IMG/VR virus record: IMGVR_UViG_3300028361_000018
DNA length: 13,970 nucleotides
Strand: one strand, 5' to 3'
DNA from: a virus
Taxonomy: Duplodnaviria; Heunggongvirae; Uroviricota; Caudoviricetes
How positions within the stretch are numbered: position 1 is the first letter of the stretch; every line of letters starts with the position of its first letter. The notes under the pieces are model-generated. The model was not told where the DNA came from, made no database searches, and saw only the letters and a program-made list of their open reading frames with translations. Positions 1 to 13,811 of the stretch are shown one piece after another. A program made the translations under genes and the position numbers.

Positions 1-102
1 GATAATGCGAAACACAAGTTTTTGTTTGACATCGCCTTTAGTCACTTGCAGCTTTGGAACAGCGCAGAGGATTTCTTGGCAGACCATGCGGATGTGGTCT
101 AG
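1..102 (+). CDS. 3' end of a paralog-array protein (5'-truncated by window)
   Basis: Frame 1 reads DNAKHKFLFDIAFSHLQLWNSAEDFLADHADVV* (TAG 100-102). HKFLFDIAF and WNSAEDF match the two C-terminal motifs of the downstream paralogs. Not in the ORF track. Confidence 0.7.
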   Translation, partial: DNAKHKFLFDIAFSHLQLWNSAEDFLADHADVV

Positions 103-114
103 TGGCAGTGTGTC

Positions 115-369
115 TTGAAATATAGAGTGGGCATAACCACCAGCGGAGTTGCAGTGAACCTACAAGGTGCAGCATGGTTAGAGCAGTGTGTAGGATCAAG
201 AGACCTGCAGTGGCGCGCGGTAGTAGATGCCCTGCGCAGTGACTACACCTCAGTACATCAAAAACGCTGCTATGACATATACTTCAACTGCGATCGGCAT
301 GTTCGAATGTGGGTGCTTTGGTGTTCATTAAATGACGTTGAGGTAAGATACAGCTTTGTGGTTGACTAG
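115..369 (+). CDS. Small paralog-array protein (F/W-x-LWC subfamily)
   Basis: WLEQCVGSRDLQW ... IYFNCDRHVRMWVLWC. TTG start without a clear SD, so the start is uncertain. Confidence 0.65.
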   Translation: MKYRVGITTSGVAVNLQGAAWLEQCVGSRDLQWRAVVDALRSDYTSVHQKRCYDIYFNCDRHVRMWVLWCSLNDVEVRYSFVVD

Positions 370-420
370 CGCAGTTTATGAAGTTGTACTGGTTATTAAC
401 TTATTATGAGACTCTAACTT

Positions 421-723
421 ATGAGCAAGATAACTCGACGGTACGTTATAGTACTAGCAGTATCTCATTACGACTATGAACAGATGGATGCTGCTATTGA
501 ATGGATAAGCGCCACCAACAAGCCCGACACTTGGAGCAGGTGGTCATTCTTTTTTGCAGACTATTGGTGTGAACAAATTCAAGTAGATACGCAATCACAA
601 CAAGCTAGAATTAACTTGTATGCAAATTTGTGTAATATCGAGAGTTATAACAGTGTAAGCGAGTTTGAGCTTAAAAATCCAAACCGTTATCCGTTCATTG
701 ACGGCATTCAAAATGAAACATAA
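421..723 (+). CDS. Small paralog-array protein (divergent)
   Basis: IEWISATNKPDTW and C-terminal SYNSVSEFE, similar to CYASIAEFE of 2700..3053. Confidence 0.6.
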   Translation: MSKITRRYVIVLAVSHYDYEQMDAAIEWISATNKPDTWSRWSFFFADYWCEQIQVDTQSQQARINLYANLCNIESYNSVSEFELKNPNRYPFIDGIQNET

Positions 724-1009
724 ACTACGCGCAAAGTTTGATCCCAGAGAAATGGTCTCCAACCAAGCGGTTAAATCATATTATGAATGGGCAAACCTAC
801 GAAAGCAATCGGATCGATGGCAACAGCATAATCTCGGATATTGCGCTGCTGCTGCCGTGTGTACAGACGATCGCGATGGTCGAATTGCAGTAGTTTGCTA
901 TTTGTTCAAGAGTTCACGCGACCTACGCCGTTTTAAGTTATGGTGCGATTTACACGGACTACAAGTAGAGGACTGTTCTGGTGCTGATAATGCAGAGAAA
1001 AACACCTAG
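713..1009 (+). CDS. Small paralog-array protein
   Basis: ATG 713 overlaps the previous stop (more likely than TTG 665). YEWANLRKQSDRW ... YLFKSSRDLRRFKLWC. Confidence 0.7.
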   Translation: MKHKLRAKFDPREMVSNQAVKSYYEWANLRKQSDRWQQHNLGYCAAAAVCTDDRDGRIAVVCYLFKSSRDLRRFKLWCDLHGLQVEDCSGADNAEKNT

Positions 1010-1280
1010 CGGATTTGCCTGCTTGATCGAACTGGATACTGATCAGCGACTCAAGGTCACTCAGTGGGTAGTATCCAATATAGCGGCTGGCGCAATGCCT
1101 TTCAACAATCCCTACATATTCACCTATCAGCATATGGACCGGAATGAGCAGCACCAGTTTATGCACAGCATGGCTTTCTTCTATCAGATAGACTTTGATA
1201 GCCAGCGTCTGCTGAGACAATTTGTTCTTTGGGCTACCTTCACAAACATTGTAATAGTCAGCACAACACACGAGGTATGA
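990..1280 (+). CDS. Small paralog-array protein
   Basis: ATG 990. QWVVSNIA ... IDFDSQRLLRQFVLWA. Confidence 0.7.
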   Translation: MQRKTPSGFACLIELDTDQRLKVTQWVVSNIAAGAMPFNNPYIFTYQHMDRNEQHQFMHSMAFFYQIDFDSQRLLRQFVLWATFTNIVIVSTTHEV

Positions 1281-1281
1281 T

Positions 1282-1584
1282 ATGTACAACAGCGTAACAA
1301 AACCATTAACCACCAGTGAACGACTAGAGATGTTTGCTTGGTGTAAACAAGTGCTAGGCACGTGGCAGAACGGTGAATGCGAGGGAATCACATATGGTTG
1401 GTCTCATCGCATTAACCGAATTAGTAACTATCATGTGAATACGTTTTCCTTTCCAAGGGCATGCGACAAGTTTATGTTCGACATACGCTTTGGACACTAT
1501 GAGATATATGACAGCTTAAACGATTACTATAATAAAGTAGAACGTGCAAAATTTAGTCCTAAACAACCACGGTGGACAATATGA
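1282..1584 (+). CDS. Small paralog-array protein
   Basis: SD GAGGT 1272-1276. AWCKQVLG ... FSFPRACDKFMFDIRFG ... IYDSLNDY. Confidence 0.75.
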   Translation: MYNSVTKPLTTSERLEMFAWCKQVLGTWQNGECEGITYGWSHRINRISNYHVNTFSFPRACDKFMFDIRFGHYEIYDSLNDYYNKVERAKFSPKQPRWTI

Positions 1585-1883
1585 TTACGGACATTAATCG
1601 TTATGCGTTTGAACACGTGAGTTATATAAGAATGAAACATGAACACTTCAAGATTCTTGAGCAATGGCTATACAAAAATATAGGCCCGGCACACTTCGAT
1701 TGGAGTAATGAGTTAGAGCGCAAGTATGCTAACAGCACAGTATTCAGCTTTAGAGTACACAAACACAAACGAGCGTTTGTTCTATTCGCGCAAATGTCAG
1801 GCTGCGCAGTGTTCGACACGTTTAATGAATATATTATATGGTGTAGCAATGTTAAAAGATCCGGATCCAATCAAACCCTATAG
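1581..1883 (+). CDS. Small paralog-array protein
   Basis: ATGA overlap with previous stop. QWLYKNIGPAHFDW ... FSFRVHKHKRAFVLF ... VFDTFNEY. Confidence 0.75.
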   Translation: MITDINRYAFEHVSYIRMKHEHFKILEQWLYKNIGPAHFDWSNELERKYANSTVFSFRVHKHKRAFVLFAQMSGCAVFDTFNEYIIWCSNVKRSGSNQTL

Positions 1884-2121
1884 CTGTGCGTTTTTGGTCA
1901 CTGAGAGACAAATCACAACAATACACAATTGGCTACATGAAAGATTCGGCCCCTACGGTGATCGATGGGCAATTAAGAGTGTGTCTCCAGGTTACTCTAT
2001 TAGGATGGCTGCTGTGATATCGTTTGCTAAAGAATCACAGCAAACATTTTTTCAGCTGGCCTGGAGCGACACGGTTAAAAGATTCTACGACACAGCAGAA
2101 GAGTGCTTTAACGATCAATAG
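1849..2121 (+). CDS. Small paralog-array protein
   Basis: Likely ATG 1849 rather than 1726. NWLHERFGPYGDRW ... ISFAKESQQTFFQLAWSD. Confidence 0.75.
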   Translation: MLKDPDPIKPYSCAFLVTERQITTIHNWLHERFGPYGDRWAIKSVSPGYSIRMAAVISFAKESQQTFFQLAWSDTVKRFYDTAEECFNDQ

Positions 2122-2133
2122 AGGAATGTTGTG

Positions 2134-2424
2134 ATGTGTAAAACAAACGGTGAAGATCAAGTCGCCCTCTACGTGAGTGTGTTTAAGATTGTTAACTATA
2201 ACGGCACGGATCAATTCACTGAGGACGTAATCTGCTGGCTTGAACATCGGTTAGGTGCTGCTAACAAACAGTGGAGCTACAAGAAAGCATACTATTGTGG
2301 TCATGCTGCCGCTATGATATCATTTAACAAAGAGTCACATCGAACATTGTTTCAGCTAGCTTGGAGTGATAATATACATGAATTCTATTCTTGCCTTGCA
2401 CATGCCTTTCACAATTGGCTTTAA
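2134..2424 (+). CDS. Small paralog-array protein, close paralog of 1849..2121
   Basis: SD GAGGA 2121-2125; ATG 2134 (or GTG 2131). CWLEHRLGAANKQW ... ISFNKESHRTLFQLAWSD. Confidence 0.75.
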   Translation: MCKTNGEDQVALYVSVFKIVNYNGTDQFTEDVICWLEHRLGAANKQWSYKKAYYCGHAAAMISFNKESHRTLFQLAWSDNIHEFYSCLAHAFHNWL

Positions 2425-2427
2425 AGA

Positions 2428-2456
2428 TTGACACCTCTGCTGTCTGACTGTATACT
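2428..2456 (+). promoter_or_regulatory. Sigma70-type (early) promoter
   Basis: TTGACA 2428-2433, 17-nt spacer, TATACT 2451-2456, in one of the few sizeable gaps in the array. Confidence 0.8.
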
Positions 2457-2485
2457 CTAAGTATATTAAAACACAAGGCAACACT

Positions 2486-2707
2486 ATGAGCCAACTAACC
2501 TGTACAGTATACGAAACCAACATGCATTACTGGACGTGGATCAAGCTGGCCTTCGACGATCCCAAGTGTAAGATTGCTAGAGTTGACGAATCTCGAGCAG
2601 GGTCAAACCGATTGACATTTATTTTCAAAGACCGTTACGGTATGCTGTTCTTTTTTCTCAAGTACTCAACACATTTTGGAATAGTAGAGGAGAACAAACT
2701 TGATTAA
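2486..2707 (+). CDS. Small paralog-array protein (minimal member)
   Basis: TWIKLAFD ... FIFKDRYGMLFFFLKYS; lies downstream of the 2428 promoter. Confidence 0.65.
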   Translation: MSQLTCTVYETNMHYWTWIKLAFDDPKCKIARVDESRAGSNRLTFIFKDRYGMLFFFLKYSTHFGIVEENKLD

Positions 2708-3053
2708 ATTTAGTAACCAATCAGTAATAGATTTTAGTTATGACCAGTCGGCGGAGATGGAGGAATGGTTAGTCAAACACTTTGGCTCCGAGGGCGAACT
2801 TTGGGTCGCTTATCTCAAACCACGAAGCACCTATGCCTATGTTATTGAGTTTTCTCAAGTAACGCATCAGATGCTGTTCGAACTTCGGTTTAGTGACTCC
2901 GCAAAGTGTTACGCTAGCATTGCTGAGTTTGAAATAGGTAGAGCAGCAGACCGAGAGGCACAAGAGGCAAAGTTCCCCAACGCGGCGACTAGGATAGAAC
3001 AATACCGTAAAAAATACCGTAACCTATTCTCATACACCGAGGATATAGAATGA
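2700..3053 (+). CDS. Small paralog-array protein
   Basis: TTG start after SD AGAGGAG. EEWLVKHFGSEGELW ... IEFSQVTHQMLFELRFSD. Confidence 0.75.
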   Translation: MIKFSNQSVIDFSYDQSAEMEEWLVKHFGSEGELWVAYLKPRSTYAYVIEFSQVTHQMLFELRFSDSAKCYASIAEFEIGRAADREAQEAKFPNAATRIEQYRKKYRNLFSYTEDIE

Positions 3054-3412
3054 AAGAGTTCGACTACATTTCTGTAATAAACATGGACATACTAGCTCTT
3101 ATTGGTATCAGCGAATGGATGACTACAGTCTTGGGCCGTCGTGGGATCAAATGGGACACTGAAGTAACTCGAGGGTATCCTCAACTAATTATAGTCATGT
3201 TTGAATCAGACAAGTATAAGACATTGTTTGATATGAAATGGGAAAGTGAGTATTCGATACATGCTAGTGCAGAAGCAGCTAATCATTATTGGACTAACAG
3301 CTACCACCAAGGCATATTAAACGCCAGTAACACAGTGCTTGGTATTGCTCGAGATACTAGTGCAAGGACGCAAATAAAGATCGAGAAAGGGAGGCACGTT
3401 GTTAATGGGTAA
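3050..3412 (+). CDS. Small paralog-array protein
   Basis: ATGA overlap. EWMTTVLGRRGIKW ... VMFESDKYKTLFDMKWES. Confidence 0.75.
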   Translation: MKEFDYISVINMDILALIGISEWMTTVLGRRGIKWDTEVTRGYPQLIIVMFESDKYKTLFDMKWESEYSIHASAEAANHYWTNSYHQGILNASNTVLGIARDTSARTQIKIEKGRHVVNG

Positions 3413-3665
3413 TCATATAGTGAGTAGTCGAATGCTGGTCCCTGAACACATGGCCTACATACGTTATAATACTAAACAGTTGAGCAAAGTAATAGACTGG
3501 CTATGCGAATTGTCAGCTGAGGATGATAAGTGGAGTATTGATCTATGGACCAAACCGTTTGAAATATACTCTATAAAGTTTAAGAACCCAAGACACCGAG
3601 TACTATTTGAATTGCGATTCGCAGGAGAAATAGACTTCATTGAACTTACGGACTCGTTAACATGA
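3405..3665 (+). CDS. Small paralog-array protein
   Basis: SD GGGAGG 3389-3394; ATG 3405 (or TTG 3399). DWLCELSAEDDKW ... IKFKNPRHRVLFELRFAG. Confidence 0.75.
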   Translation: MGNHIVSSRMLVPEHMAYIRYNTKQLSKVIDWLCELSAEDDKWSIDLWTKPFEIYSIKFKNPRHRVLFELRFAGEIDFIELTDSLT

Positions 3666-3979
3666 AACTATCAAAGTTCAAACACCACACTGTGTTTAGC
3701 TACACAAAAATTCCTCTTCAAACAGCGTTGGATTGGTTGACTGCTCGCATGGGGCCGGAGGATATCAAATGGCAATGCAACCGCCCCTTAGGAAACATTG
3801 CAACTGTAGAATTTATGTCTAATCGAGACAAGTTCCTCTTCGACATACGATGGTCTGAACAAATGCGTATTCTGCCAACATCTGGAGCAGGTCCTGCTCC
3901 AAGTTTTGTAAAGTTGTTAATTGAGCTCGGTGCACAATCAAATAAACAGCATACTAAAATCACAACAGCAGGTCTGTAA
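3662..3979 (+). CDS. Small paralog-array protein
   Basis: DWLTARMGPEDIKW ... ATVEFMSNRDKFLFDIRWSE ... MRILPTSGAGPAP. Confidence 0.75.
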   Translation: MKLSKFKHHTVFSYTKIPLQTALDWLTARMGPEDIKWQCNRPLGNIATVEFMSNRDKFLFDIRWSEQMRILPTSGAGPAPSFVKLLIELGAQSNKQHTKITTAGL

Positions 3980-3982
3980 GCT

Positions 3983-4288
3983 ATGATGAAACGCAACTAC
4001 CACACAATCTTTCGCACAAGCCACACTACTCTACTTAAGATGGAACACTGGCTGGCTCTCAGCTTTGGGCCCGAAGGGGGCCGGTGGCAGATCAAAGACG
4101 ACTACCTTCGAGTAGACATGGCGGCTGTTGAGTTTGAGGACGAGCGACACAAATTATTGTTTGATCTTAAATGGGGTAACGATAATCGTATGCGCGTGAT
4201 GCCGAGTCTAGGGCAAGGGCCCAGCCCGCGTCCGGTATCGGGCAGTCTGCTCGGGTACGCAGTGACAGATGAGACATCTACCCTGTGA
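3983..4288 (+). CDS. Small paralog-array protein
   Basis: HWLALSFGPEGGRW ... AAVEFEDERHKLLFDLKWGN ... MRVMPSLGQGPSP. Confidence 0.75.
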   Translation: MMKRNYHTIFRTSHTTLLKMEHWLALSFGPEGGRWQIKDDYLRVDMAAVEFEDERHKLLFDLKWGNDNRMRVMPSLGQGPSPRPVSGSLLGYAVTDETSTL

Positions 4289-4518
4289 GCTACATAATTG
4301 CAGGGTTTAGAAAATTTGAGCAAGCAACGCCGTTAATTGAATGGATCGAAACCAATCCCAACTATTCACTAGGGGAGTGGTTTCAGCATTACGGACAAGA
4401 ATCTAACAACTGTTATTCAACAACGTCTGTTATAGTCCACTACGACGGACCAGTATACGGAATGCTATTTAAACTACGCTGGGCCGATAGATTATATATT
4501 TTAGAGGAAGTAAATTAG
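4285..4518 (+). CDS. Small paralog-array protein (last member)
   Basis: GTGA overlap. IEWIETNP ... GMLFKLRWAD. Confidence 0.65.
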   Translation: MSYIIAGFRKFEQATPLIEWIETNPNYSLGEWFQHYGQESNNCYSTTSVIVHYDGPVYGMLFKLRWADRLYILEEVN

Positions 4519-4528
4519 GATTAACTCT

Positions 4529-4565
4529 CTACTGGCATTAATTACCACGCCATTAATGCCAGTAG
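4529..4565. terminator. Perfect 14-bp inverted repeat; probable bidirectional terminator between convergent blocks
   Basis: CTACTGGCATTAAT (4529-4542) / ATTAATGCCAGTAG (4552-4565), 9-nt loop, located where + and - genes converge. No clear U-tract. Confidence 0.55.
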
Positions 4566-5065: not shown

Positions 5066-5287
5066 ATGAGTAGAATGCGCAATATATCTTTAAACCTAGA
5101 GTTAGGTCAAAAGATACTAGTAGGCCCAAACAACGAAACAGCCGAAATAACAAAAATTGAGTTTCATGAAAAGAGCGGAGAGATAGACATAAACACTACA
5201 AGAGGTCCTCGCAAGGTTTTAACATTTAGGCTATGCGAGCAATCTGACCAAGAAGAAAATACTAATCCTGCTGACAAATTTAGGTAA
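5066..5287 (+). CDS. Hypothetical protein (possible small beta-barrel)
   Basis: 73 aa, strong SD; fold is a guess from residue pattern. Confidence 0.75.
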   Translation: MSRMRNISLNLELGQKILVGPNNETAEITKIEFHEKSGEIDINTTRGPRKVLTFRLCEQSDQEENTNPADKFR

Positions 5288-5293
5288 ATGAAT

Positions 5294-5539
5294 ATGAAGA
5301 TAAATGAAATTATAGACACAGTTACAGAGTGGAAAGCCTCTAAAAAGCTTTGCACTAGTTCTAAGCCAGACAGCGCAATAGGTGCAAGTGCACTAGCGTC
5401 CTGTAAGTCACAAGGCTATCGCAGTCGCGACGGGAACAAGAGTCACAAGATTGGCAAGAAAAGAGTTAAGATGGGCGGAAAGAAAATTCGCGGCGCTCCC
5501 TATGGAGGATCTATACCGAATTATGGTAGCGGGAGCTAA
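5294..5539 (+). CDS. Small basic protein with MKINEII leader; candidate internal head protein
   Basis: MKINEIIDTVTE then a K/R/G/S-rich body (16 K+R in 69 aa). ATG 5294 or 5288. Confidence 0.7.
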   Translation: MKINEIIDTVTEWKASKKLCTSSKPDSAIGASALASCKSQGYRSRDGNKSHKIGKKRVKMGGKKIRGAPYGGSIPNYGSGS

Positions 5540-5542
5540 TCA

Positions 5543-6103
5543 GTGCTGGAAATAAAAACAGTCGAATGTTTAAAAGGATCAATTATAGTTAGCACTCCTT
5601 TACTTGTAGACCGTCTTTTTGAGGAGTGTGTAATTTATATATACGACCATTCCTCTAGATGGGGCACACAGGGCATTGTGATAAACAGAACTACTGATCT
5701 AACGGTATTAGATTTACTAGAGAAAATGGAGCTTTTCTCTCAAGACCCACAACTAGACTTTCCATTGTATCACGGCGGACCTATTGAAGAAAACGGTATT
5801 GCCATGGTACATACTAGTGAATGGTACTCTTCCAACACTTGTGCAGTGACAAGCGATATTAGTATTAGCTCAGATAAGTTTATGATAGAAAAGCTCTTAG
5901 ACGGCAATGCACCTGCTAACTGGTTGATGAGCGCAGGCAAGTGTGAATGGGAGCCTGGAGAGATAGAACAGGAAATAGCAGCAGGCGCTTGGCTGTGTGC
6001 TACGGCGTGTGAAGAGATGTTATTCTCGTCAAAGGATAACGACAGCCAATGGAGAATAGCTATTGAATATTGCACCAAACAAGCAGTAAACAGTTGGCTC
6101 TAG
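5543..6103 (+). CDS. yqgE: YqgE/AlgH family protein (UPF0301/DUF179)
   Basis: GSIIVSTP..D..F..CV....H....G..GIVINR, YHGGPI, G..EW.PGEIEQEI..GAW match the family pattern. GTG start with SD GGGAG. Confidence 0.85.
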   Translation: MLEIKTVECLKGSIIVSTPLLVDRLFEECVIYIYDHSSRWGTQGIVINRTTDLTVLDLLEKMELFSQDPQLDFPLYHGGPIEENGIAMVHTSEWYSSNTCAVTSDISISSDKFMIEKLLDGNAPANWLMSAGKCEWEPGEIEQEIAAGAWLCATACEEMLFSSKDNDSQWRIAIEYCTKQAVNSWL

Positions 6104-6112
6104 ACAAAGCGA

Positions 6113-6141
6113 TTGACAGCTAAATAAAACACTGCTATAAT
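6113..6141 (+). promoter_or_regulatory. Consensus sigma70 promoter with extended -10; TAAATA nested in the spacer
   Basis: TTGACA 6113-6118, 17 nt, TATAAT 6136-6141 preceded by TGC; TAAATA at 6121-6126. Confidence 0.85.
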
Positions 6142-6204
6142 GGCAGTTGTACTATGAAGTCATACAACGGTATGACTACTGATTAAGGAAAAAGAGGAGA
6201 TAAC

Positions 6205-6714
6205 ATGGATTGCTTGCTGTTAAATGCTAACGGACAACCAGTGTCTTATCTTCCGTTAAGTGCAATAACGTGGAAAGATGCTGTTACTTATATGTGGCTG
6301 GACAAATGCATTGTACTAGATTGGTATGATGACTGGATAGTACACGCAGAAACTTGGGAAACGCGAGTTCCCGCAGTCATCATGATGAAAGAAATGATGA
6401 AGTCCAAGACCAAGCCGAGATTCTCAAAGGGAAATATATTTCTACGAGATCTATTCACTTGCCAGTATTGCGAGACTAAGGTAACGCGAAACGAAGCAAC
6501 ATTGGATCACGTGAGGCCACAAAGCCTCGGCGGTAAAACTACCTGGGAAAATATAGCAACAGCATGCGGTCCATGTAACCATAACAAGGGCAATCGGCTT
6601 AGTCCTAAACCTATTAGGCAGCCCTACAAGCCTGATTACTATGAGCTAGTAAGTAAGCGCAAGCTGTCATCATGGGAAGTAAAACACCCGTCTTGGAACA
6701 CCTACCTACAATAA
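6205..6714 (+). CDS. HNH endonuclease, McrA/COG1403-like
   Basis: RDLFTCQYC ... TLDHVRPQSLGGKTTWENIATACGPCNHNKG (CxxC/HNH); SD AAGAGGAG. Confidence 0.9.
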   Translation: MDCLLLNANGQPVSYLPLSAITWKDAVTYMWLDKCIVLDWYDDWIVHAETWETRVPAVIMMKEMMKSKTKPRFSKGNIFLRDLFTCQYCETKVTRNEATLDHVRPQSLGGKTTWENIATACGPCNHNKGNRLSPKPIRQPYKPDYYELVSKRKLSSWEVKHPSWNTYLQ

Positions 6715-6715
6715 G

Positions 6716-7132
6716 CTACTTAAACCAAGCAATACGTTTACCAGCGTCTATACGGCGCTGGTGTTCTTGGTGGCTTCCAGGGTAGCGCCACCCCCATATG
6801 CTAACCAAGAACATAAATCCTCCACTCCACGCAATCGCAGCAATATTGCCTGTGGTAAACCAAAGCACAGCTAGGCTAGTTGACATTGTAATTACCATTA
6901 GGTATTTAAATTTAGTAGGGAAGATACGTTTCTCTGTCCAGTTTTTTAAAAACGGTCCAAAGATCTTATGATTATAGATCCACTTGTGCATACGCTTGCT
7001 ACTTTTAGCAAAGCAGTATGCTGCACCTACCGCAGGTGTGCTCCACGGTAACATAGGCATATAAATCCCTACAAAGGCTACTCCTACAAGTATAATGCCC
7101 AGCGTAAACCAAAGTGCTTTTTTAATGTTCAT
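6716..7132 (-). CDS. ybaN: YbaN/DUF454 family inner-membrane protein
   Basis: G.....VG...PMLP..P....A.CFAKSS.R...W...H..FGP....W....P.K.K pattern. Start overlaps the hemA stop by 11 nt. Confidence 0.8.
6740..6768 (+). terminator. Probable intrinsic terminator for the HNH transcript, inside the 3' end of ybaN
   Basis: CCAGCGTC-TATAC-GGCGCTGG stem-loop (one G-U) followed by TGTTCTT. Confidence 0.45.
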
Positions 7133-8321
7133 CTAATATCTCCTTGAGTGATGCTACTAGATAGCTCATCATCTCGTCTGTGTGCAAGGGAGTAGGAGCA
7201 ATACGAAGACGTTCTTGGCCGACAGGAACTGTAGGAAAGTTAATGCTTTGAACGTAGATTCCGTAATCTGTTAATAACCTATCGCTCAGCATCTTGCATC
7301 TAACTGCATTGCCTATCATTACAGGTACGATGTGAGTGCACGATGCCGGATGTACGCTTATGCCTGCGTCGGCTAGCATCTTCTTGAGACGGCTAGCACG
7401 TTCTTGGTGCTTGTCTCGTAGTTCGTTATGGTCCTTAAGATATTTTATGGATGCCAAGGCCCCTGCACAAATCACCGGACTTGTGCTGGTAGTGAATATA
7501 AATCCACTGGCTACACTGCGCACTGCATCTATGACGCTTCCATGGGCTGCTATGTATCCGCCTTGCACTCCAAAGGCTTTACCTAGGGTGCCATTAATAA
7601 TATCGATCCTGTCTTCAAGTCCAAGCTTTTCACACCACCCTGCACCGGTACTCCCGTACAGGCCCACAGCGTGAACTTCGTCGATATATGTAATTGCACC
7701 ATAGGCATCGGCCAGGTCGCAGACTTGAGAAATAGGAGATATATCACCATCCATGCTATACACAGATTCAAAGACAATACAGGGTGTGAGTCCTCGGGCT
7801 ACGGTATTCTTTAGTTTCTCTTCTAAGTCGCTCATATCATTGTGTTGCCATACTAATTTGTCAGCACCGCTGTGTCGTATACCTTGTATCAATGAAGCAT
7901 GGTTCATTGAGTCAGACAGGAACACAATATTGGGAATGATTTGTTTGAGAGCGATCAGTGTCCACTCATTAGCAACATAAGCAGAGGTATAGAGCAGTGC
8001 GCTGCCTTTTTTGTGCAGACGTGCCAGCTCAGATTCCAACGCTACATGATAGTGGCTTGTGCCGCTAATGTTTCTAGTTCCACCTGATCCACTTCCTGTT
8101 TGATCAAGTGCGGTATGCATTGCGTCAATAACTACTTTATTTTGCCCCATACCTAGATAATCGTTACTGCACCAGTTGACTATGTTCTTTATAGCATAAG
8201 GCCCGTACCAGAGGCTTTTAGGGAATAACCCGCGTTCGCGAAGTACGTCATTAAATACTCGATAGGCACCGGAGGCTTTTAAGGAGTCAGTTGTTTTTTG
8301 AAAAGGTGTTAGGTTTATCAT
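7122..8321 (-). CDS. hemA: 5-aminolevulinate synthase (PLP-dependent, C4/Shemin pathway)
   Basis: ALAS-type motifs [61 protein letters not shown] (PLP Lys), INFPTVP.G.ERLRI.P.P.H. ATG at 8321 (track start 8324 is TTG). Confidence 0.93.
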
Positions 8322-8327
8322 CAATTG

Positions 8328-8333
8328 TATTTA
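8328..8333 (-). promoter_or_regulatory. T4-like late promoter core directly upstream of hemA
   Basis: Minus strand AATAAATA-CAATTG-ATG; no SD present. Confidence 0.55.
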
Positions 8334-8376
8334 TTAAAACGCTGATTGGCTATTCCTTGTATCATTAATAATTACG

Positions 8377-8383
8377 ATAAATA
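8377..8383 (+). promoter_or_regulatory. T4-like late promoter core (ATAAATA)
   Basis: Upstream of SD AAGGAG 8393-8398; divergent from the hemA copy. Confidence 0.6.
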
Positions 8384-8406
8384 TCTAGTATAAAGGAGAG
8401 TATAAA

Positions 8407-8442
8407 ATGATTAAGATTGCAGGAACATATTGTGGCAGCTAA
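8407..8442 (+). other. 11-codon upstream ORF with strong SD, overlapping the next gene's start out of frame
   Basis: AAGGAG-N8-ATG; MIKIAGTYCGS*. Confidence 0.35.
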
Positions 8443-9403
8443 TGGAATTTCAACACTAGAGTTTAAACGTGATAGACAAAACGCAAAACTGGCATTGGCA
8501 GCAGCTAACAGAGGTATTAGTGGAAGACGTAGTAACCTGGATATATCACAGCTTCCTACAGTTTATAGCCCGACTAACAATACTGTCATTAATAATCCAA
8601 ACCTGGGTGGATTGATAGTGGGCCGACCGTGGACTGACCTATCACTGTTGCAAGCCCTAATTACCTCGCTCTTCGGCGCAGGCGAACAGGGCGCATTCTA
8701 CATCCCTCGGCCCATCGTCAACGGCGTGCAGTCGCTCTTTCAAGATGCGGCAGGCACTGTGCCGGTGACTGCGGACGGCGATCCCGTTGGGCTAATGCTG
8801 GATCAATCTGGGAATGGGAATCACGCCTTTCAGACTGTTAGCGGGAGAAGGCCGATATATAGAACTGATGGGACGTTGCATTGGCTAAAGTTTGATGGGG
8901 TAGATGACTTGCTAGTAACTGGACAAGTCGCATTCGATGGTGACGCCTTTCTTCTTATCTGGGGCGGGATAAACCCAACAGACTCTAGCTTATCGGGTAG
9001 GCCAGGATATAATTTCTTAAAAGTTGGAAGCAATAAGTATTTTGTAGAGTATTTAAACAGTTTCGATGAGAGCGCACGCAAAGTTTTATTAGAAGAATCC
9101 CCGCGTGGCACTATTTTTGCAAATGAAAGCCCCGCTTATCCGCCAAGGGGTACTCCTTTTGTGTCATGGTCTACTCAGGGCACCGTCGGAAAGATTGGCG
9201 TAATTGACACCCTGAGTGCTGTTGATGTAGGGAGTAAGTCGCTAGAGTCTTTTAATGCGAATCTTCGATTGGGATCTGGATTTGCGCAAAGTTTAGGGCC
9301 GCTTGTGCTTTTTGGCTATGTATGGCTATCTCGTACGCCAACAGAGTCGGAGCTTACTAATACCAATGCCTATCTTGCCGGATTATCAGGGATAACTCCA
9401 TGA
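8432..9403 (+). CDS. Chimeric virion/receptor-binding protein (N-terminal GGL..GRPW module plus tail-fibre/lectin-like domain)
   Basis: Likely GTG 8432 with SD AGGA 7 nt upstream (MAANGISTL...). LFQDAAGTVPVTADGDPVGLMLDQSGNGNHA ... LKFDGVDD resembles proteobacterial phage tail/LamG-like proteins (from memory, no search). Confidence 0.65.
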   Translation: MAANGISTLEFKRDRQNAKLALAAANRGISGRRSNLDISQLPTVYSPTNNTVINNPNLGGLIVGRPWTDLSLLQALITSLFGAGEQGAFYIPRPIVNGVQSLFQDAAGTVPVTADGDPVGLMLDQSGNGNHAFQTVSGRRPIYRTDGTLHWLKFDGVDDLLVTGQVAFDGDAFLLIWGGINPTDSSLSGRPGYNFLKVGSNKYFVEYLNSFDESARKVLLEESPRGTIFANESPAYPPRGTPFVSWSTQGTVGKIGVIDTLSAVDVGSKSLESFNANLRLGSGFAQSLGPLVLFGYVWLSRTPTESELTNTNAYLAGLSGITP

Positions 9404-9801
9404 CCACCTCTTATGTCCAGCGCGCCACAATCGCCGCCCCCATCAACCACATCCCCGACGCCAACCAACTAGCCCTATGCCTCGGCGAGTCAACACAAGA
9501 CGATCAGACATTCAACACGGCATCGTACCAAGACGCATCCGGCAATTTGTACGCAGTAGCCTCAACAGTCACTAAGCCCATCTTTGCAGAGCTAGCAGGC
9601 CAGCCGTTAAAAGCCCCTGACCATGCACCGGATATGGACATAGAAGCGGCTACAAGGGCACAGGCTCTGCTACAGATTAACGGCGGCATTGCAAGCCCGG
9701 ATGTTATCGCGGTGATACTGGGCGACCGTAAAGAGTCACCGCAGGATCACATAGCGGCGCTAGGGCTGACGCGGGTAGAGCAGGATCAACCAATTAATTA
9801 G
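9400..9801 (+). CDS. Partner protein of the tail-fibre-like gene (possible assembly/accessory protein)
   Basis: ATGA-coupled; about 58% GC over 9401-9520; function inferred from position. Confidence 0.55.
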   Translation: MTTSYVQRATIAAPINHIPDANQLALCLGESTQDDQTFNTASYQDASGNLYAVASTVTKPIFAELAGQPLKAPDHAPDMDIEAATRAQALLQINGGIASPDVIAVILGDRKESPQDHIAALGLTRVEQDQPIN

Positions 9802-9815
9802 CTATAGATGATTTA

Positions 9816-9842
9816 CCCCTGGTGTATTGCTACAGTCAGGGG
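9816..9842. terminator. Stem-loop terminator candidate
   Basis: CCCCTG/CAGGGG outer stem plus TGTA/TACA inner stem, followed by T-rich CAGTTGTTTCATTTTATT. Confidence 0.5.
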
Positions 9843-9908
9843 CAGTTGTTTCATTTTATTGTAAAAGCTATGCTTTTTTTAAAAGACCATCGTCTCATTG
9901 TAGAAAAC

Positions 9909-9914
9909 TATTTA
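9909..9914 (-). promoter_or_regulatory. Orphan late-promoter core (GATAAATAG) with no long ORF downstream
   Basis: TATTTA on + strand, intergenic. Confidence 0.35.
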
Positions 9915-9955
9915 TCTCTTGACCTTATGGTAGTATAATGTAGTGAAGTGTGAAC

Positions 9956-9961
9956 TAAATA
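9956..9961 (+). promoter_or_regulatory. T4-like late promoter core
   Basis: CTAAATAC upstream of SD AAGGA 9972-9976 and ATG 9988. Confidence 0.55.
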
Positions 9962-9987
9962 CTGCCACAGCAAGGAATTTCTATTAT

Positions 9988-10251
9988 ATGAAAAAGCGCA
10001 CGCGAAGCATTCTCGAAGAACTAAATCAAATCCACGGCGGGCGAGATAGTGATTTATTCATTGACGCTACTGCTAACAATATTATTGAAAGCGCTATCAA
10101 CTTGCTGACCAGAGTGCACAGTCTCTATGACGTTGACACTGCATCAGAGCTTGAAAGGCGATTCTTAAACAGCATAAAGAACGGTGACCCTAAAAAGTTT
10201 CAACGGTCTATGCAAAAGATAAAAGAGAGTAAACGCAATGATCCTAAGTGA
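9988..10251 (+). CDS. Hypothetical phage protein (helical)
   Basis: MKKRTRSILEELN...; ATG 9988 with SD is more likely than GTG 9943. Confidence 0.75.
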   Translation: MKKRTRSILEELNQIHGGRDSDLFIDATANNIIESAINLLTRVHSLYDVDTASELERRFLNSIKNGDPKKFQRSMQKIKESKRNDPK

Positions 10252-11104
10252 AGGCGGCGCAATGTCAGGTGTAGGAGCAATACACATTTCAGAAATAGAG
10301 CCCACTCTCAGCGCATTAGAAAAAGTACTAGGCATTGATCTTAAAAACAACGTGCTGGGCAGCGTAGGCAAGAAAGAGTTCTCGGGGGACATTGATGTTG
10401 CTCTCCAAATAGATACTGATAAGATTACAGAGTTTATGCAACGCCTCAAAAAAACACCCGAGGTACTAGATATTGCTAAAACTAGTGTGATCATGACCAA
10501 AGTAAAAATTGTAGGATACGATCCACAAAAGCAGACAACTGAACCAAGGACAGGATTCGTACAGCTAGACTTTATGCTGGGCGAGCCTGAATGGATGAAA
10601 ACATATTATCATTCCCCGACTGATAAAGAATCAAAGTATAAAGGTGTGTTTCGCAACCTAATGATTGCGTCTATTGCTGGTGCGTATGATAGGCAAGACT
10701 CAGACGAAACACTAGATGACGGAAGACCACTGCGCAGCCAGCGGTGGATGTTTTCTCCTACTGACGGACTTGTACGTGTGATTCGAACTCCTGTGCCCAA
10801 GAAAAGTAGCAACGGGTATACAAAAAAGAACGCTAATAAAAAGTTACAGGACGGTATTAAAAATCCTCAAGAGATTGCCAAAGCACTAGGACTAGATAGT
10901 GCATTAGACTTGAATTCTTTTGAAAGTCTAATAGCTGCTGTTAATAAAAACCATGCTGGACCATTAGCTAAAACTATCAAACAAAACTTTATAGCCAACA
11001 GCACAGTACAAGACATTGGTATTCCCAGCGAACTAACAGTAACAGAAACTCTAGCAGACAAGCATTTTGCACGTATTAAAGCACTACTGGAAAAACTAGC
11101 CTAA
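10238..11104 (+). CDS. Pol-beta superfamily nucleotidyltransferase
   Basis: LGSVGKKEFSGDIDV (hGS-x-DxD) and distal VQLDFM (third Asp); N-terminus MILSE-GG. Confidence 0.7.
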   Translation: MILSEGGAMSGVGAIHISEIEPTLSALEKVLGIDLKNNVLGSVGKKEFSGDIDVALQIDTDKITEFMQRLKKTPEVLDIAKTSVIMTKVKIVGYDPQKQTTEPRTGFVQLDFMLGEPEWMKTYYHSPTDKESKYKGVFRNLMIASIAGAYDRQDSDETLDDGRPLRSQRWMFSPTDGLVRVIRTPVPKKSSNGYTKKNANKKLQDGIKNPQEIAKALGLDSALDLNSFESLIAAVNKNHAGPLAKTIKQNFIANSTVQDIGIPSELTVTETLADKHFARIKALLEKLA

Positions 11105-11973
11105 TGATGGAATTTATAAAGGAACTGCACGAAGCACGTATGACCAAGGGCAGCAGCAACGTTGCCCAGTTGACATACACAGACTGCGGCGAAAGAATGT
11201 ATCTATTGCTGCTGGCCCTCGAAGTCATGCGGTTGTATCCTGCATTTAGGCCCATAGTACAACGCTACGCTAAGAGCACTGTTATGTTCGACAACTACAA
11301 GTACTACTTGAGCTCAGGAACAGACCTTTATAATTTTATCTACTTTTTAGTAGGCGACAACAGTGCGCAAGCCAAGCTTAAAGATCCACAGGCAGCCACA
11401 GCACTAAAACAGAAAACACGCATTCCGTTGATAGCGCTGAGCAGACATATGGAAGCACTGGCACAGGGACGAGAGCCCAGCTTGGTTACTAAATTGTTTA
11501 TAGATATCGAAGGCGCTATTCGACTGCCCACACAAGACTACAAGAAGATACGCCGTGGAATTAAAGACTTTCCTCGGTTAACTGCCAAAGAAAGACAAAC
11601 ACTGGTCACTAGACTTATATTTGCCGTGAGAGCAAAACTGAGAAGCTCAGACTTCATCAACAGCTTCGAAAAGTTTGCAACTGTTAAAAACCTAGAGAAT
11701 CCCAATGCTAGAGACCCAGAGCCCGAACTGAGCACGCCTGATGTTAAAACCAGTCCCGCCAACATAGCACTCTACAGTTATCTAGTAGGCCCGTCAAACA
11801 TAGCACAGACCAAACGATTCCTTGATATGGCCAAGAACGGCAACGCAGTGAGCGCGGAGATGTTGAAAGCATATATTCCTGTGATAGATATTATAGACGA
11901 TATAGTGCAAGGCGGCCCGGCATACGTACAAAACCTAAAAGCACTTCACAATAGAGCTAAAAAACGCAATTAA
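11104..11973 (+). CDS. Hypothetical protein with MEFIKELHE leader; candidate head-associated protein
   Basis: TAATG-coupled, 289 aa, no recognised catalytic motif. Confidence 0.75.
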   Translation: MMEFIKELHEARMTKGSSNVAQLTYTDCGERMYLLLLALEVMRLYPAFRPIVQRYAKSTVMFDNYKYYLSSGTDLYNFIYFLVGDNSAQAKLKDPQAATALKQKTRIPLIALSRHMEALAQGREPSLVTKLFIDIEGAIRLPTQDYKKIRRGIKDFPRLTAKERQTLVTRLIFAVRAKLRSSDFINSFEKFATVKNLENPNARDPEPELSTPDVKTSPANIALYSYLVGPSNIAQTKRFLDMAKNGNAVSAEMLKAYIPVIDIIDDIVQGGPAYVQNLKALHNRAKKRN

Positions 11974-11995
11974 CCCCGTAAATCTTAAAAAGACA

Positions 11996-12001
11996 TAAAT
12001 A
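11996..12001 (+). promoter_or_regulatory. T4-like late promoter core
   Basis: CATAAATAC, followed by an 8-bp hairpin (12011-12032) and SD AGGAG. Confidence 0.6.
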
Positions 12002-12058
12002 CTTTCATACAAGTTCATTAGAACATGAACTTACCATTTAGATACAGGAGAATATAAA

Positions 12059-12436
12059 ATGGCGGTAACATTAGATTTTGCAAAAGTAAACAGTAACCTA
12101 TACACACTAGGTACACTAGTAGGAACAGGTCAAGTACGTGCATATAAGGCAGTATTTGGAACAGCACTAACTTCCGACACACGTGCGGCCGGCGACGACG
12201 GCGAACCTGGGTCAATTCGCGGCCCTATTACCACTGGTACGTTGCGCCTAGTAGCTAACGAGCTAAATGCATTGGTGTTTGAAAGCAATGGTGACGGTAC
12301 TACTGTTGGGTTTGTTACTGAATTTCACCACGTAGATATAGCTAGTCTAGAACGTAGACTAGAGCACCTCGTAGACGATGGCACAGCTTCCCCACCACAA
12401 GTAACAGTTACTGAAGTAGGTCTAAAGCTTGCTTAA
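12059..12436 (+). CDS. Putative abundant structural protein
   Basis: 125 aa, G/T/V-rich; has its own promoter, strong SD and strong terminator. Confidence 0.7.
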   Translation: MAVTLDFAKVNSNLYTLGTLVGTGQVRAYKAVFGTALTSDTRAAGDDGEPGSIRGPITTGTLRLVANELNALVFESNGDGTTVGFVTEFHHVDIASLERRLEHLVDDGTASPPQVTVTEVGLKLA

Positions 12437-12460
12437 TTAGTATCCCTACCTAGTTTAGGC

Positions 12461-12493
12461 AAAAGAGTTCAGTTTTTACTGAGCTCTTTTTTT
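12461..12493 (+). terminator. Rho-independent terminator
   Basis: AAAAGAGTTCAGT-TTTT-ACTGAGCTCTTTT-TTT (13-bp stem with one G-U, U-tract). Confidence 0.85.
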
Positions 12494-12500
12494 ATGACTG

Positions 12501-12506
12501 TAAATA
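12501..12506 (+). promoter_or_regulatory. T4-like late promoter core, 4 nt before ATG
   Basis: GTAAATACACT-ATG, no SD. Confidence 0.6.
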
Positions 12507-12510
12507 CACT

Positions 12511-12909
12511 ATGAAATTCAAACTATACACACTGATCGATATAACAGAAACGGGTGGCCGCAAAGGTGATGATCCCAGAAAGATACAACAGCAACAAAAC
12601 TTCCTTACTATTTTACAGACAATTGGGCTGAGAGTTAATCCAGCATACGACCAAGCTCCTGTGCTGTTTTACGCTACTGCTGATGAGTTTAATCTAGGTA
12701 CTAATTTTAAAAATAGACAGAACGTATGGGTGTTTGAATTCGACATAGAACACGAAGACGCAATGTCTATTGACACACTGGTAAACGATTTTAATCTAGT
12801 GCCAATAATAGATCATCTAGACGAAACTGCTGAGTTCGAAAACGCACACTTTGTTACTCATAATACACAGTATCGAAATATCGTCTTTGAACTAGTTGAA
12901 TATAAATAA
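12511..12909 (+). CDS. Hypothetical phage protein
   Basis: 132 aa, MKFKLYTLIDITETG...; no SD. Confidence 0.75.
   Translation: MKFKLYTLIDITETGGRKGDDPRKIQQQQNFLTILQTIGLRVNPAYDQAPVLFYATADEFNLGTNFKNRQNVWVFEFDIEHEDAMSIDTLVNDFNLVPIIDHLDETAEFENAHFVTHNTQYRNIVFELVEYK
12901..12908 (+). promoter_or_regulatory. Full T4 late promoter consensus TATAAATA
   Basis: Overlaps the previous stop; SD TAAGGAG 12932-12938 follows. Confidence 0.6.
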
Positions 12910-12943
12910 GACTATACAACGCGGTTCACCGTAAGGAGATTAC

Positions 12944-13183
12944 ATGTCAGGGATAGAACCTACAGCATTAGAAAGATCTAGTCTAGAAGCGCATGTTGAT
13001 TTATGTGCTCTAAGATATAAAAACCTAAATGATCGTATTACCACCGTAGAAACAACTCTAATGAATATACGCACTGATATAAAGGAAGGGCAGTCATCCT
13101 TAATTAAGGTATTAATAGGAACTGCTGGCACTATTGTTGCCGGTTTGTTATCTACTATAGTTGTAATATTAGTTACCTTTTGA
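12944..13183 (+). CDS. Coiled-coil plus C-terminal TM protein (XhlA/holin-like)
   Basis: SLEAHVDLCALRY coiled-coil segment followed by hydrophobic LIGTAGTIVAGLLSTIVVILVTF. Confidence 0.6.
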   Translation: MSGIEPTALERSSLEAHVDLCALRYKNLNDRITTVETTLMNIRTDIKEGQSSLIKVLIGTAGTIVAGLLSTIVVILVTF

Positions 13184-13201: not shown

Positions 13202-13492
13202 ATGTTACTACGTGAACTTTTTACTAACCTACTAGACGAATCACAGACATGGGCTCGATCCGGAAAAAAGGTCGTGCGCAAGTACAGATGCGGCAGTGGA
13301 CCACGAAAAGGAAGAGTAGTGGCCAAAGCTGCACAATGTTTTGCAGCACCGGATATCAAAAAACGCCAAACAATGAAACGAACCAAAGCAAGACTGGGTT
13401 CAAGAATGATTCGTAAATCTAAGAAGACTAAAAAGATAAATCCTGCTAGTCGTAGAGTTCAATCTATGAACAAAGCATCAAGGAGAGTCTAA
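13202..13492 (+). CDS. Highly basic protein with MLLRELF leader; candidate DNA-condensing internal protein
   Basis: 29 K+R and 1 acidic residue in the 83 aa after LLDE. Confidence 0.75.
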   Translation: MLLRELFTNLLDESQTWARSGKKVVRKYRCGSGPRKGRVVAKAAQCFAAPDIKKRQTMKRTKARLGSRMIRKSKKTKKINPASRRVQSMNKASRRV

Positions 13493-13493
13493 A

Positions 13494-13811
13494 ATGTTTT
13501 TACGAGAGCTGTTCGAAGGTGTAGCCACAGTGTTTGGTACCAACAAAGGCAAGACTGTGCGCAAGTACCGTTGTACTAGCGGTAGCCGAAAAGGACGAAT
13601 TGTGGCCAAGCCTGCAACTTGTACAGCACCTAAAAATATGAAGGCATCTAATACTCTAAAAAAGACTAGACGCAGCCGTGGATCGTCTATTGATATCAAA
13701 CGATCAAGAACCAAACGTACAAATCCTTCGACTCAGAGACTAAGTCGAATCAACACCGGACGTAGGACTATAAGGCCTAAGAAGCGTACAGGATCAAAGG
13801 GGAGAATATGA
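13494..13811 (+). CDS. Highly basic paralog with MFLRELFE leader
   Basis: 31 K+R and 1 acidic residue in the 97 aa after LFE; shares VRKYRCxSGxRKGRxVAKxxxCxA. Confidence 0.75.
   Translation: MFLRELFEGVATVFGTNKGKTVRKYRCTSGSRKGRIVAKPATCTAPKNMKASNTLKKTRRSRGSSIDIKRSRTKRTNPSTQRLSRINTGRRTIRPKKRTGSKGRI

Follow-up and report, generated by a model that had tools for sequence, protein, structure and literature searches.

A tandem array of 22 diverged small paralogs with a predicted ferredoxin-like fold in a large uncultured phage

A large uncultured phage, known from lake and salt-lake metagenomes, carries a tandem array of 22 small genes that are diverged copies of one domain. We analyzed a stretch of 13,970 nucleotides (the window) that corresponds to bases 1112-15081 of a 39,435-bp virus contig in IMG/VR (record IMGVR_UViG_3300028361_000018; CheckV completeness 11 %). 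Positions 1-4518 of the window hold the distal two thirds of the array, and the remainder runs 2.3 kb further left. We suggest, with a probability of roughly one half, that the array is an early repertoire of small non-enzymatic binding proteins used for host takeover or anti-defence.

The array is an uninterrupted run of genes on the + strand. Its 22 consecutive open reading frames (ORFs; 73-132 aa) occupy 6.8 kb, and window positions 1-4518 contain 15 complete ORFs (73-131 aa) plus the 3' end of a sixteenth. An earlier note, made from the window's sequence, had expected that the array would probably continue to the left, and it does. Four members lie left of the window on the same contig and scored 23-33 bits before entering the family hidden Markov model (HMM). 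An ENA contig (L002) that is 99.99 % identical to the window across 8,365 bases and reaches 4 kb further left contributes three more (47-61 bits), placing the full array at L002:1729-8531. On the whole 39-kb contig, the family HMM had no match beyond the array genes. The genes are closely packed, with many start/stop overlaps as had been described: five junctions are ATGA overlaps, six more genes overlap by 8-59 nt, and only four gaps exceed 50 nt. Metagenome runs from lake water contain near-identical array DNA, and one from a salt lake contains a diverged relative.

The 16 ORFs of the window fit a single family. An all-versus-all phmmer comparison linked seven of them at E-values of 1e-6 to 4e-16. 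The HMM built from those seven recovered 1572-1883 at 31 bits and three further ORFs (1282-1584, 4285-4518 and the partial one at the 5' end) at 11-14 bits; with this core HMM, none of 1,600 shuffled decoys exceeded 9.1 bits. After iteration, ten full genes scored 60-102 bits. The range across HMM rounds was 60-122 bits, compared to 11.6 bits for the best of 1,600-3,800 decoys overall, a shuffled control of the kind that the earlier note had proposed. Pairwise identity among most copies is 12-35 %.

Five ORFs were doubtful by the HMM. Each aligned co-linearly to the correct part of the profile, the weakest three (981-1280, 2486-2707 and 665-1009) to the beta3-alpha2 part, and all five (hhalign scores 14.8-25.7) ranked above all 11 of the non-array small ORFs of the window (6.9-13.5). 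By our own calculation, the chance of five ORFs outranking 11 controls in this way is 1 in 4,368. A profile of the orthologs of 713-1009 matched the family profile at P 0.0066, with no gain over the single sequence. We count 11 of the window ORFs as certain members, two as probable, and three as likely but individually weak by sequence. The claim that the region holds at least 16 diverged paralogs of one small domain was thus borne out.

The copies are predicted to adopt a ferredoxin-like fold. We modeled 3983-4288 with AlphaFold2 (AF2), using an alignment of 14 clear paralogs. The model has a predicted local distance difference test score (pLDDT) of 79 (80-97 in the core blocks), secondary-structure elements E6-11, H14-28, E35-41, E46-51, H54-64 and E71-73, and a disordered tail. 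This is the beta-alpha-beta-beta-alpha-beta topology of the RRM and ferredoxin-like class, in agreement with the scaffold that had been proposed. For the weak member 713-1009 we built a second model from an alignment restricted to its seven orthologs. It showed the elements in the same order, with low confidence (pLDDT 64; only one of the five models exceeded 50). The two models have twelve of their best PDB matches in common (2n2t, 6exx, 3ofg, 5uyy, 6nuk, 6zu5, 7eqx, 3cb4, 4qbu, 8xi2, 2rqm and 5gar). The models support placing the clear members and, with low confidence, 713-1009 in the ferredoxin-like fold class.

The structural matches indicate a fold class and not a particular family. In the VIA comparison, the first model matched the designed ferredoxin 2n2t (Z 7.9, root-mean-square deviation 2.4, 71 aligned residues), Pes4 RRM4 (6exx; Z 7.6), the TyrA ACT domain (5uyy and 5v0s; Z 7.0-7.1) and the NELF-E RRM (Z 6.6). 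A total of 258 chains had Z>=5 and none had Z>=8; the tool describes Z <8 as typical of a shared common arrangement. The second model matched adenovirus E4-ORF3 (4djb; Z 7.3), a viral protein of the ferredoxin-like fold class that binds proteins. Because RRM, ACT and designed ferredoxins are tied at Z 7-8, the fold class is supported and a specific tie to RRMs is not. The array family shares with these proteins the order of secondary-structure elements and a two-layer alpha/beta sandwich; it has no sequence relationship to them, and all of the Z scores are below 8 and tied. On the models, then, the likeness to RRMs, ACT domains, designed ferredoxins and 4djb is that of a shared common fold, not of a demonstrated family tie.

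Foldseek, which had been suggested together with structure prediction as a check, gave no significant match. Searches against PDB, BFVD and the AFDB clusters had nothing at E<=0.001; the best match was an uncharacterised 335-aa protein of Atu_ph07 (E 1.4e-3). The nearest shapes in the ESM Atlas were unnamed clusters that are 75-100 % viral, two of them (75-89 % viral) with TM scores of 0.60-0.62. An ESM Atlas feature search also pointed to unnamed viral clusters, at 0.86, which is below the tool's reliable level.

The conserved residues of the family form its hydrophobic core. The core of the domain is approximately 75 residues and is followed by variable tails. The only conserved positions are hydrophobic core positions: the Trp of helix 1, the Gly that ends this helix, the Trp that begins strand 2, the Phe of strand 3, and [LM]F-x-L-x-W of helix 2. 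Mapped to the model, W-x5-G closes alpha1 and the W after it starts beta2; h-x-F and [LM]F-x-L-x-W correspond to beta3 and alpha2, respectively. Variation falls on the surface, in the beta2-beta3 region and in the tails. The earlier description of fixed anchors separated by hypervariable loops therefore holds, as do its shared motifs: the helix [LMF]F-x-[LIM]-x-[WF] is found in 16 of the 22 array genes and W-x5/6-G...W likewise in 16. Copies in the window prefer HK-x-LFD[IL]-x-W for this helix, with beta4 and the tails after it. No polar position was conserved across the family alignments, which makes an enzymatic function very unlikely.

The fold raises the possibility that the proteins are RRM-type RNA-binders, each copy using the exposed side of its beta-sheet to bind a distinct host or phage RNA, as in T4 RegA and eukaryotic RRMs. 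The predicted topology equals that of RRMs, RRM domains are among the tied top structural matches (Z 7.6 and 6.6), Foldseek listed AFDB clusters named for RRMs at E 0.02-0.1, and there is precedent in the RRM-fold translational repressor RegA that is encoded by T4-type phages (PMC7824862). Against this, we found neither RNP1 ([RK]G[FY][GA][FY][ILV]x[FY]) nor RNP2 ([ILV][FY][ILV]xNL) in any of 183 family proteins (the 22 array genes plus 161 relatives), even with a loosened RNP1. Pfam yielded no RRM match, whether for 10 members (E<=1) or for 104 (E<=0.01). Most of the proteins are neutral to acidic (median isoelectric point 6.4 for the array and 6.2 for the relatives, with 68 % of the relatives below 7). 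In addition, ACT domains, designed ferredoxins and ribosomal domains match about as well as the RRMs do, all at Z under 8. The RRM-like, RNA-binding character suggested in the earlier note did not hold up; nothing in the sequences appears to point to RNA binding, and we consider this explanation unlikely.

Another possibility is that the copies are regulatory modules like ACT or dimeric alpha+beta-barrel (Dabb) domains, that is, sheet-mediated dimers that bind a small ligand or regulate a phage or host enzyme. The TyrA ACT domain (Z 7.0-7.1), IlvN and dimeric alpha+beta-barrel proteins were among the matches of both models, and small free-standing ferredoxin-like proteins often dimerise. However, there was no ACT match in Pfam for either 10 or 104 members, and the family lacks a conserved ligand-binding loop; nothing between beta1 and alpha1 is conserved, nor is any polar residue. 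Twenty-two diverged tandem copies are also hard to square with ligand sensing. A homodimer prediction with residues 1-80 of 3983-4288 gave a score of 0.09, which speaks neither for nor against dimers. We give this alternative little weight.

The array adjoins a region with the appearance of a replication origin or of a control region that titrates DnaA. Directly to the left of the array is a 1.7-kb region (L003:1251-3012, equivalent to L002:1-1728) with no credible ORFs, from which genes diverge on both strands. Twelve DnaA-box-like sites (TTATNCACA, with at most one mismatch) fall inside 186 bp of it. The 4.1-kb locus L003 as a whole has 16 such sites compared to 5.8 expected, and none of 200 shuffles reached 16. 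The region also contains an 18-nt iteron (TAAGTCATTGATTTCATT) in both direct and inverted orientation and an AT-rich 10-mer in nine tandem copies; AACAGCGGGGCC occurs three times immediately ahead of the array promoter.

Promoter-like sequences suggest that the array is expressed early. A TTGACA-17-TATACT sequence with an upstream TG is located at L002:1673-1701, 28 nt before the first array gene, and is followed by an AAGGA ribosome-binding site. A second site of the sigma-70 type, also TTGACA-17-TATACT, lies within the array at 2428-2456 (+ strand; L002:6441-6469), before gene 16. Each matches 11 of 12 consensus positions. The position of the genes behind consensus sigma-70 promoters supports, as a suggestion, the earlier idea of early expression. 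Scans with Rfam (gathering threshold) and for tRNAs found nothing in the array and the upstream region.

The gene content of the array changes between close relatives, mostly at the promoter-proximal end. A relative (L015/L016) with 87-89 % nucleotide identity has the same flanks and an origin-like region that is 88.6 % identical, and it has 14 array genes compared to 22. In L016, the first six to seven array genes are replaced by three members that cannot be aligned at the DNA level. One gene, 49 % identical, stands in place of the pair 1849-2121/2131-2424; gene 9 (421-723) is missing, and identity in the distal genes is 76-97 %. Contigs from other samples include a joint from 1859 to 2428 (run X2) and lack cover over 463-770 and 1860-2443. 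The seven promoter-proximal genes have common stretches of 70-91 nt at 60-77 % identity, with approximately 50 nt almost identical between two copies. A 62-nt repeat at 329-390 (+ strand) is 92 % identical to L002:2372-2433, located 1,970 nt upstream; it spans the 3' end of a gene and a promoter-like spacer, and may be a footprint of recombination. The remains of a dead copy lie at L002:2783-2885, where the frame of gene 3 passes through an in-frame TAG into a beta3-alpha2-beta4 end. The stop is also found in a second assembly.

These comparisons bear on whether the proteins could be the phage's own replication or transcription factors, binding DNA or polymerase (compare papillomavirus E2 and the NusG/Spt5 NGN domain) and acting on the adjoining origin-like region or on RNA polymerase. 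The array starts approximately 1.1 kb downstream of the 12 DnaA-box-like sites and is also preceded by the iterons. The top PDB matches in Foldseek were Spt5 NGN domains (E 0.02-0.5, non-significant), with human papillomavirus E2 at E 0.43. But all of the NGN and E2 matches are non-significant and the proteins are not basic. Furthermore, the copy content varies between close relatives while the origin-like region stays 88.6 % conserved, which does not fit an essential factor. We think it improbable that the copies act in this way.

The array genes evolve faster than their neighbors and are still under purifying selection. We estimated the ratio of non-synonymous to synonymous rates (dN/dS; Nei-Gojobori, NG86) for 12 orthologous array pairs and 10 flanking genes. 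It was 0.23-0.96 (median 0.40) for the array orthologs and 0.01-0.12 (median 0.08) for the flanking genes, a non-synonymous rate relative to the synonymous rate that is approximately five times higher in the array. Synonymous divergence (dS) from the relative was 0.02-0.14 in the five distal array genes (3050-4518), versus 0.37-1.9 in the flanks (5066-13128). Because dS is so low in the 3' array genes, their dN/dS values are noisy, and a recent exchange of this segment between lineages is likely. The low dS suggests either such an exchange or constraint at the nucleotide level.

We considered whether the copies might be dispensable, slowly decaying duplicates without distinct functions, maintained only through weak selection or as hitch-hikers in a region prone to recombination. 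The raised dN/dS relative to the flanks is in line with this, as are the relic with its in-frame stop and the loss or replacement of copies in relatives. On the other hand, all 22 frames are open, the orthologs are 65-97 % identical, and dN/dS is below 1 in every pair. The residues that define the fold are kept across 225 clusters of relatives (described below), and arrays recur in unrelated contigs. We regard decay of this kind as very unlikely.

From these comparisons we conclude that the array evolves as a birth-and-death family: its promoter-proximal end is active, and its distal part is old and conserved. It is not a recent gene accordion. The earlier note had spoken of an accordion, and this fits the promoter-proximal third, which has copy-number change, nucleotide-level repeats and decayed relics. 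It does not fit most of the copies, which are old (the 12-35 % pairwise identity given above) and have orthologs that are 70-97 % identical in the relative.

Relatives of the array genes are found in other metagenomic samples. We scored a profile of 14 clear copies against 1.84 billion cluster representatives and found 225 metagenomic clusters at E<=1e-3, 23 of them at E<=1e-10; the matches listed were 51-152 aa long. In many of 60-90 aa, the alpha2 motif forms the very C-terminus (as in ...DAMLFKLRW and ...AMIFKLAWGG; E 1e-4 to 1e-6). Arrays from other samples (L011 and L012) include a 2.9-kb contig in which 10 of 10 consecutive ORFs belong to the family and another contig with five.

The family had no match in the annotated databases. 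Neither Pfam nor PHROGs gave a match, for 10 members or for 104, and a profile search of PDB sequences gave nothing at E<=1. Among 50,697 deposited phage genomes, neither megablast with the window nor tblastn with three members found a match. Searches for related loci confirmed no relative among the available records, either in GTDB genomes or in IMG/VR, the latter queried with one protein and with an alignment of a subfamily. Atu_ph07, a cultured 490-kb Agrobacterium phage, had three weak profile matches (best E 1.2e-5), the best of them in an unannotated frame, and with matches of this kind its expanded family is not established as the array family. Judged by its sequences, the family is phage-restricted and unannotated, in keeping with the proposal that it is undescribed.

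We believe that the array is best explained as an early repertoire of small binders, because it combines probable host-polymerase promoters, fast protein evolution and turnover of copies with a conserved core and a variable surface. A conserved core, a variable surface, an early position and fast evolution are the known pattern of phage genes for host takeover and anti-defence, for example in the hyperplastic regions of T4. Host RNA polymerase would transcribe the array genes early, and the copies, built on one scaffold, would each offer a distinct surface to a different macromolecule of the host or of a competitor. The repertoire would serve host takeover or counter-defence and would be renewed through the birth and death of copies.

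Several points weigh against an early binder repertoire. The array promoters are consensus matches only. Recombination between lineages may distort the comparison of dN/dS between array and flanks, and a raised dN/dS that stays below 1 fits relaxed constraint as well as it fits diversifying selection at a few sites. Most copies are ancient and have conserved orthologs, as expected for stable, distinct functions and not for an arms-race accordion. Finally, we found no fused forms of 245-2000 aa, and so no fusion that would hint at a partner, although this is weak evidence.

The layout of the array resembles that of the hyperplastic regions (HPRs) of T4-type phages, in which genes are shuffled through promoter/stem-loop (PeSL) elements (Comeau, Arbiol & Krisch 2014; PMC4122927). 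In both, small genes on the same strand are located behind early promoters of the sigma-70 type (identified here by sequence), and the content varies by insertions and deletions between close relatives while the flanks stay collinear (here 87-89 % identical). HPRs have repeated promoter-bearing spacers at break points, and the 62-nt repeat at 329-390 and L002:2372-2433 is similar in this respect. With regard to PeSL motifs, the array has this one promoter-bearing repeat and several hairpins; the likeness is one of layout. Unlike HPRs, which are mostly mixtures of unrelated ORFs (PMC4122927), the array has 22 genes that are all paralogs of one fold.

Multiplication of one small domain in a large virus genome has precedents. 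Poxviruses and African swine fever virus (ASFV) have multigene families and gene accordions. Among jumbo phages, Bacillus phage G has approximately 35 zinc-ribbon copies, a lineage-specific expansion (Iyer et al. 2021; PMC7824862). The array is like these in that one small domain is multiplied in tandem, presumably in conflict with the host, and unlike them in its fold and in that most of its copies are old and not recent amplifications. The jumbo-phage survey of Iyer et al. (PMC7824862) mentions no family like the array family. Lineage-specific expansions of small proteins in large phages were therefore already known, and what is new is a family that is absent from Pfam and PHROGs and has no relative among PDB sequences. 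More tentatively, the array could be one of the loci of a very large superfamily of phage "mini-binders" with the ferredoxin fold, a combinatorial repertoire of early effectors that would each neutralise a different host defence or regulatory protein and would be renewed near an early promoter, making them a phage counterpart of the poxvirus and ASFV multigene families.

The 16 array genes in the window, numbered from the start of the full array, are all on the + strand. The first of them, gene 7, is a certain member represented by its 3' end at 1-102; the full gene is at 956-1213 of the contig (85 aa), and the full ORF scored 94.5 bits compared to 11-15 bits for the part in the window. Gene 8 (115-369; 84 aa, TTG start) is a probable member, with 12.6-16.3 bits by HMM (above 3,800 decoys), an hhalign P of 2.8e-4, and an intact ortholog in L016. 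Gene 9 (421-723; 100 aa) is also probable (HMM 12.4 bits; hhalign P 6.2e-5 over 74 columns); besides its absence from L016, it is without cover in run X5. The three weak members are gene 10, gene 11 and gene 16. Gene 10 (665-1009; likely start 713, giving 98 aa) has an hhalign P of 0.014-0.017 and seven orthologs at 60-86 % identity. Gene 11 (981-1280; 99 aa) has 8.0 bits by HMM, a score that 3 of 3,800 decoys reach, an hhalign P of 0.0045, and an ortholog with 70 % identity in L016. Gene 16 (2486-2707; 73 aa) has an hhalign P of 0.01, above all 11 controls, and an ortholog with 79 % identity in L016.

The other genes are certain members. Gene 12 (1282-1584; 100 aa) scored 74-93 bits by HMM, and gene 13 (1572-1883; 103 aa) rose to 77-93 bits from its 31 bits with the core HMM, which lacked it. 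Gene 14 (1849-2121; 90 aa from the ATG at 1849 in a frame open from 1726; 79-93 bits) is a younger duplicate of gene 15 (2131-2424; 97 aa; 82-92 bits), with a phmmer E of 5e-14 between them and a single gene at this place in the relative. Gene 17 (2700-3053; 117 aa) scored 101 bits and has a charged C-terminal tail. It is followed by gene 18 (3050-3412; 120 aa; 112 bits), gene 19 (3399-3665; 88 aa; 90 bits) and gene 20 (3662-3979; 105 aa; 122 bits), the last with a phmmer E of 4e-16 to gene 21 (3983-4288; 101 aa), the member used for the AF2 model with pLDDT 79. The last copy, gene 22 (4285-4518; 77 aa), scored 13.8 bits with the core HMM, above 1,600 decoys, and 60-65 bits afterwards. In genes 20 and 21 (3662-4288) and in the relatives P0042, P0045 and P0077, the domain is followed by a Gly/Pro-rich motif (approximately P-[ST]-x-G-x-G-P-x-P-S), possibly a short linear motif of one subfamily. 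A hairpin at 4529-4565, 11 nt after the last array gene, is a perfect 14-bp inverted repeat with a 9-nt loop. It faces convergent genes on the - strand and is not followed by a run of T.

The genes around the array are those of a phage. Elsewhere on the contig are class Ia ribonucleotide reductase genes, interrupted by a homing endonuclease, and genes for an exonuclease and for virion proteins. Because of the ribonucleotide reductase, exonuclease and virion genes, we take the contig to be a fragment of a large lytic phage. In the window, a small protein encoded at 9943-10251 (+ strand) matches the PHROG virion structural protein phrog_11854 (E 8.6e-16), which places virion genes within 5.5 kb of the array. 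A 5-aminolevulinate synthase gene is at 7122-8324 (- strand; TIGR01821, 560 bits versus a cut-off of 338.55) and adjoins genes for a DUF454 membrane protein, an HNH endonuclease and a YqgE/AlgH-family protein. It looks like an auxiliary metabolic gene for a haem precursor. Because 5-aminolevulinate synthase of this type is typical of Alphaproteobacteria, it may hint at an alphaproteobacterial host. Between the HNH and DUF454 genes, the relative has three extra genes (91, 508 and 107 aa; L015:6097-8325, versus window 6714-6716) that are absent from the window's phage. At 13202-13492 and 13494-13811 (+ strand) is an adjacent pair of paralogous, very basic small proteins that both start with M-[LF]-LRELF and carry RKYRC-x-SG-x-RKGR-[IV]-VAK; neither has a PHROG match.

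Several per cent of the genes of large phages are in families of such a kind, and this locus is a clean case: 22 copies of one small, confidently modeled scaffold with a conserved core and variable surfaces. In addition, it has a promoter that is probably early, relics of dead copies, and a turnover that can be measured by comparing natural relatives. If the copies do not bind distinct host proteins, the array is one more unannotated expansion of paralogs. If they do, many natural inhibitors of bacterial functions and defences could be drawn from the family, which would also serve as a model for how phages diversify a binding scaffold.

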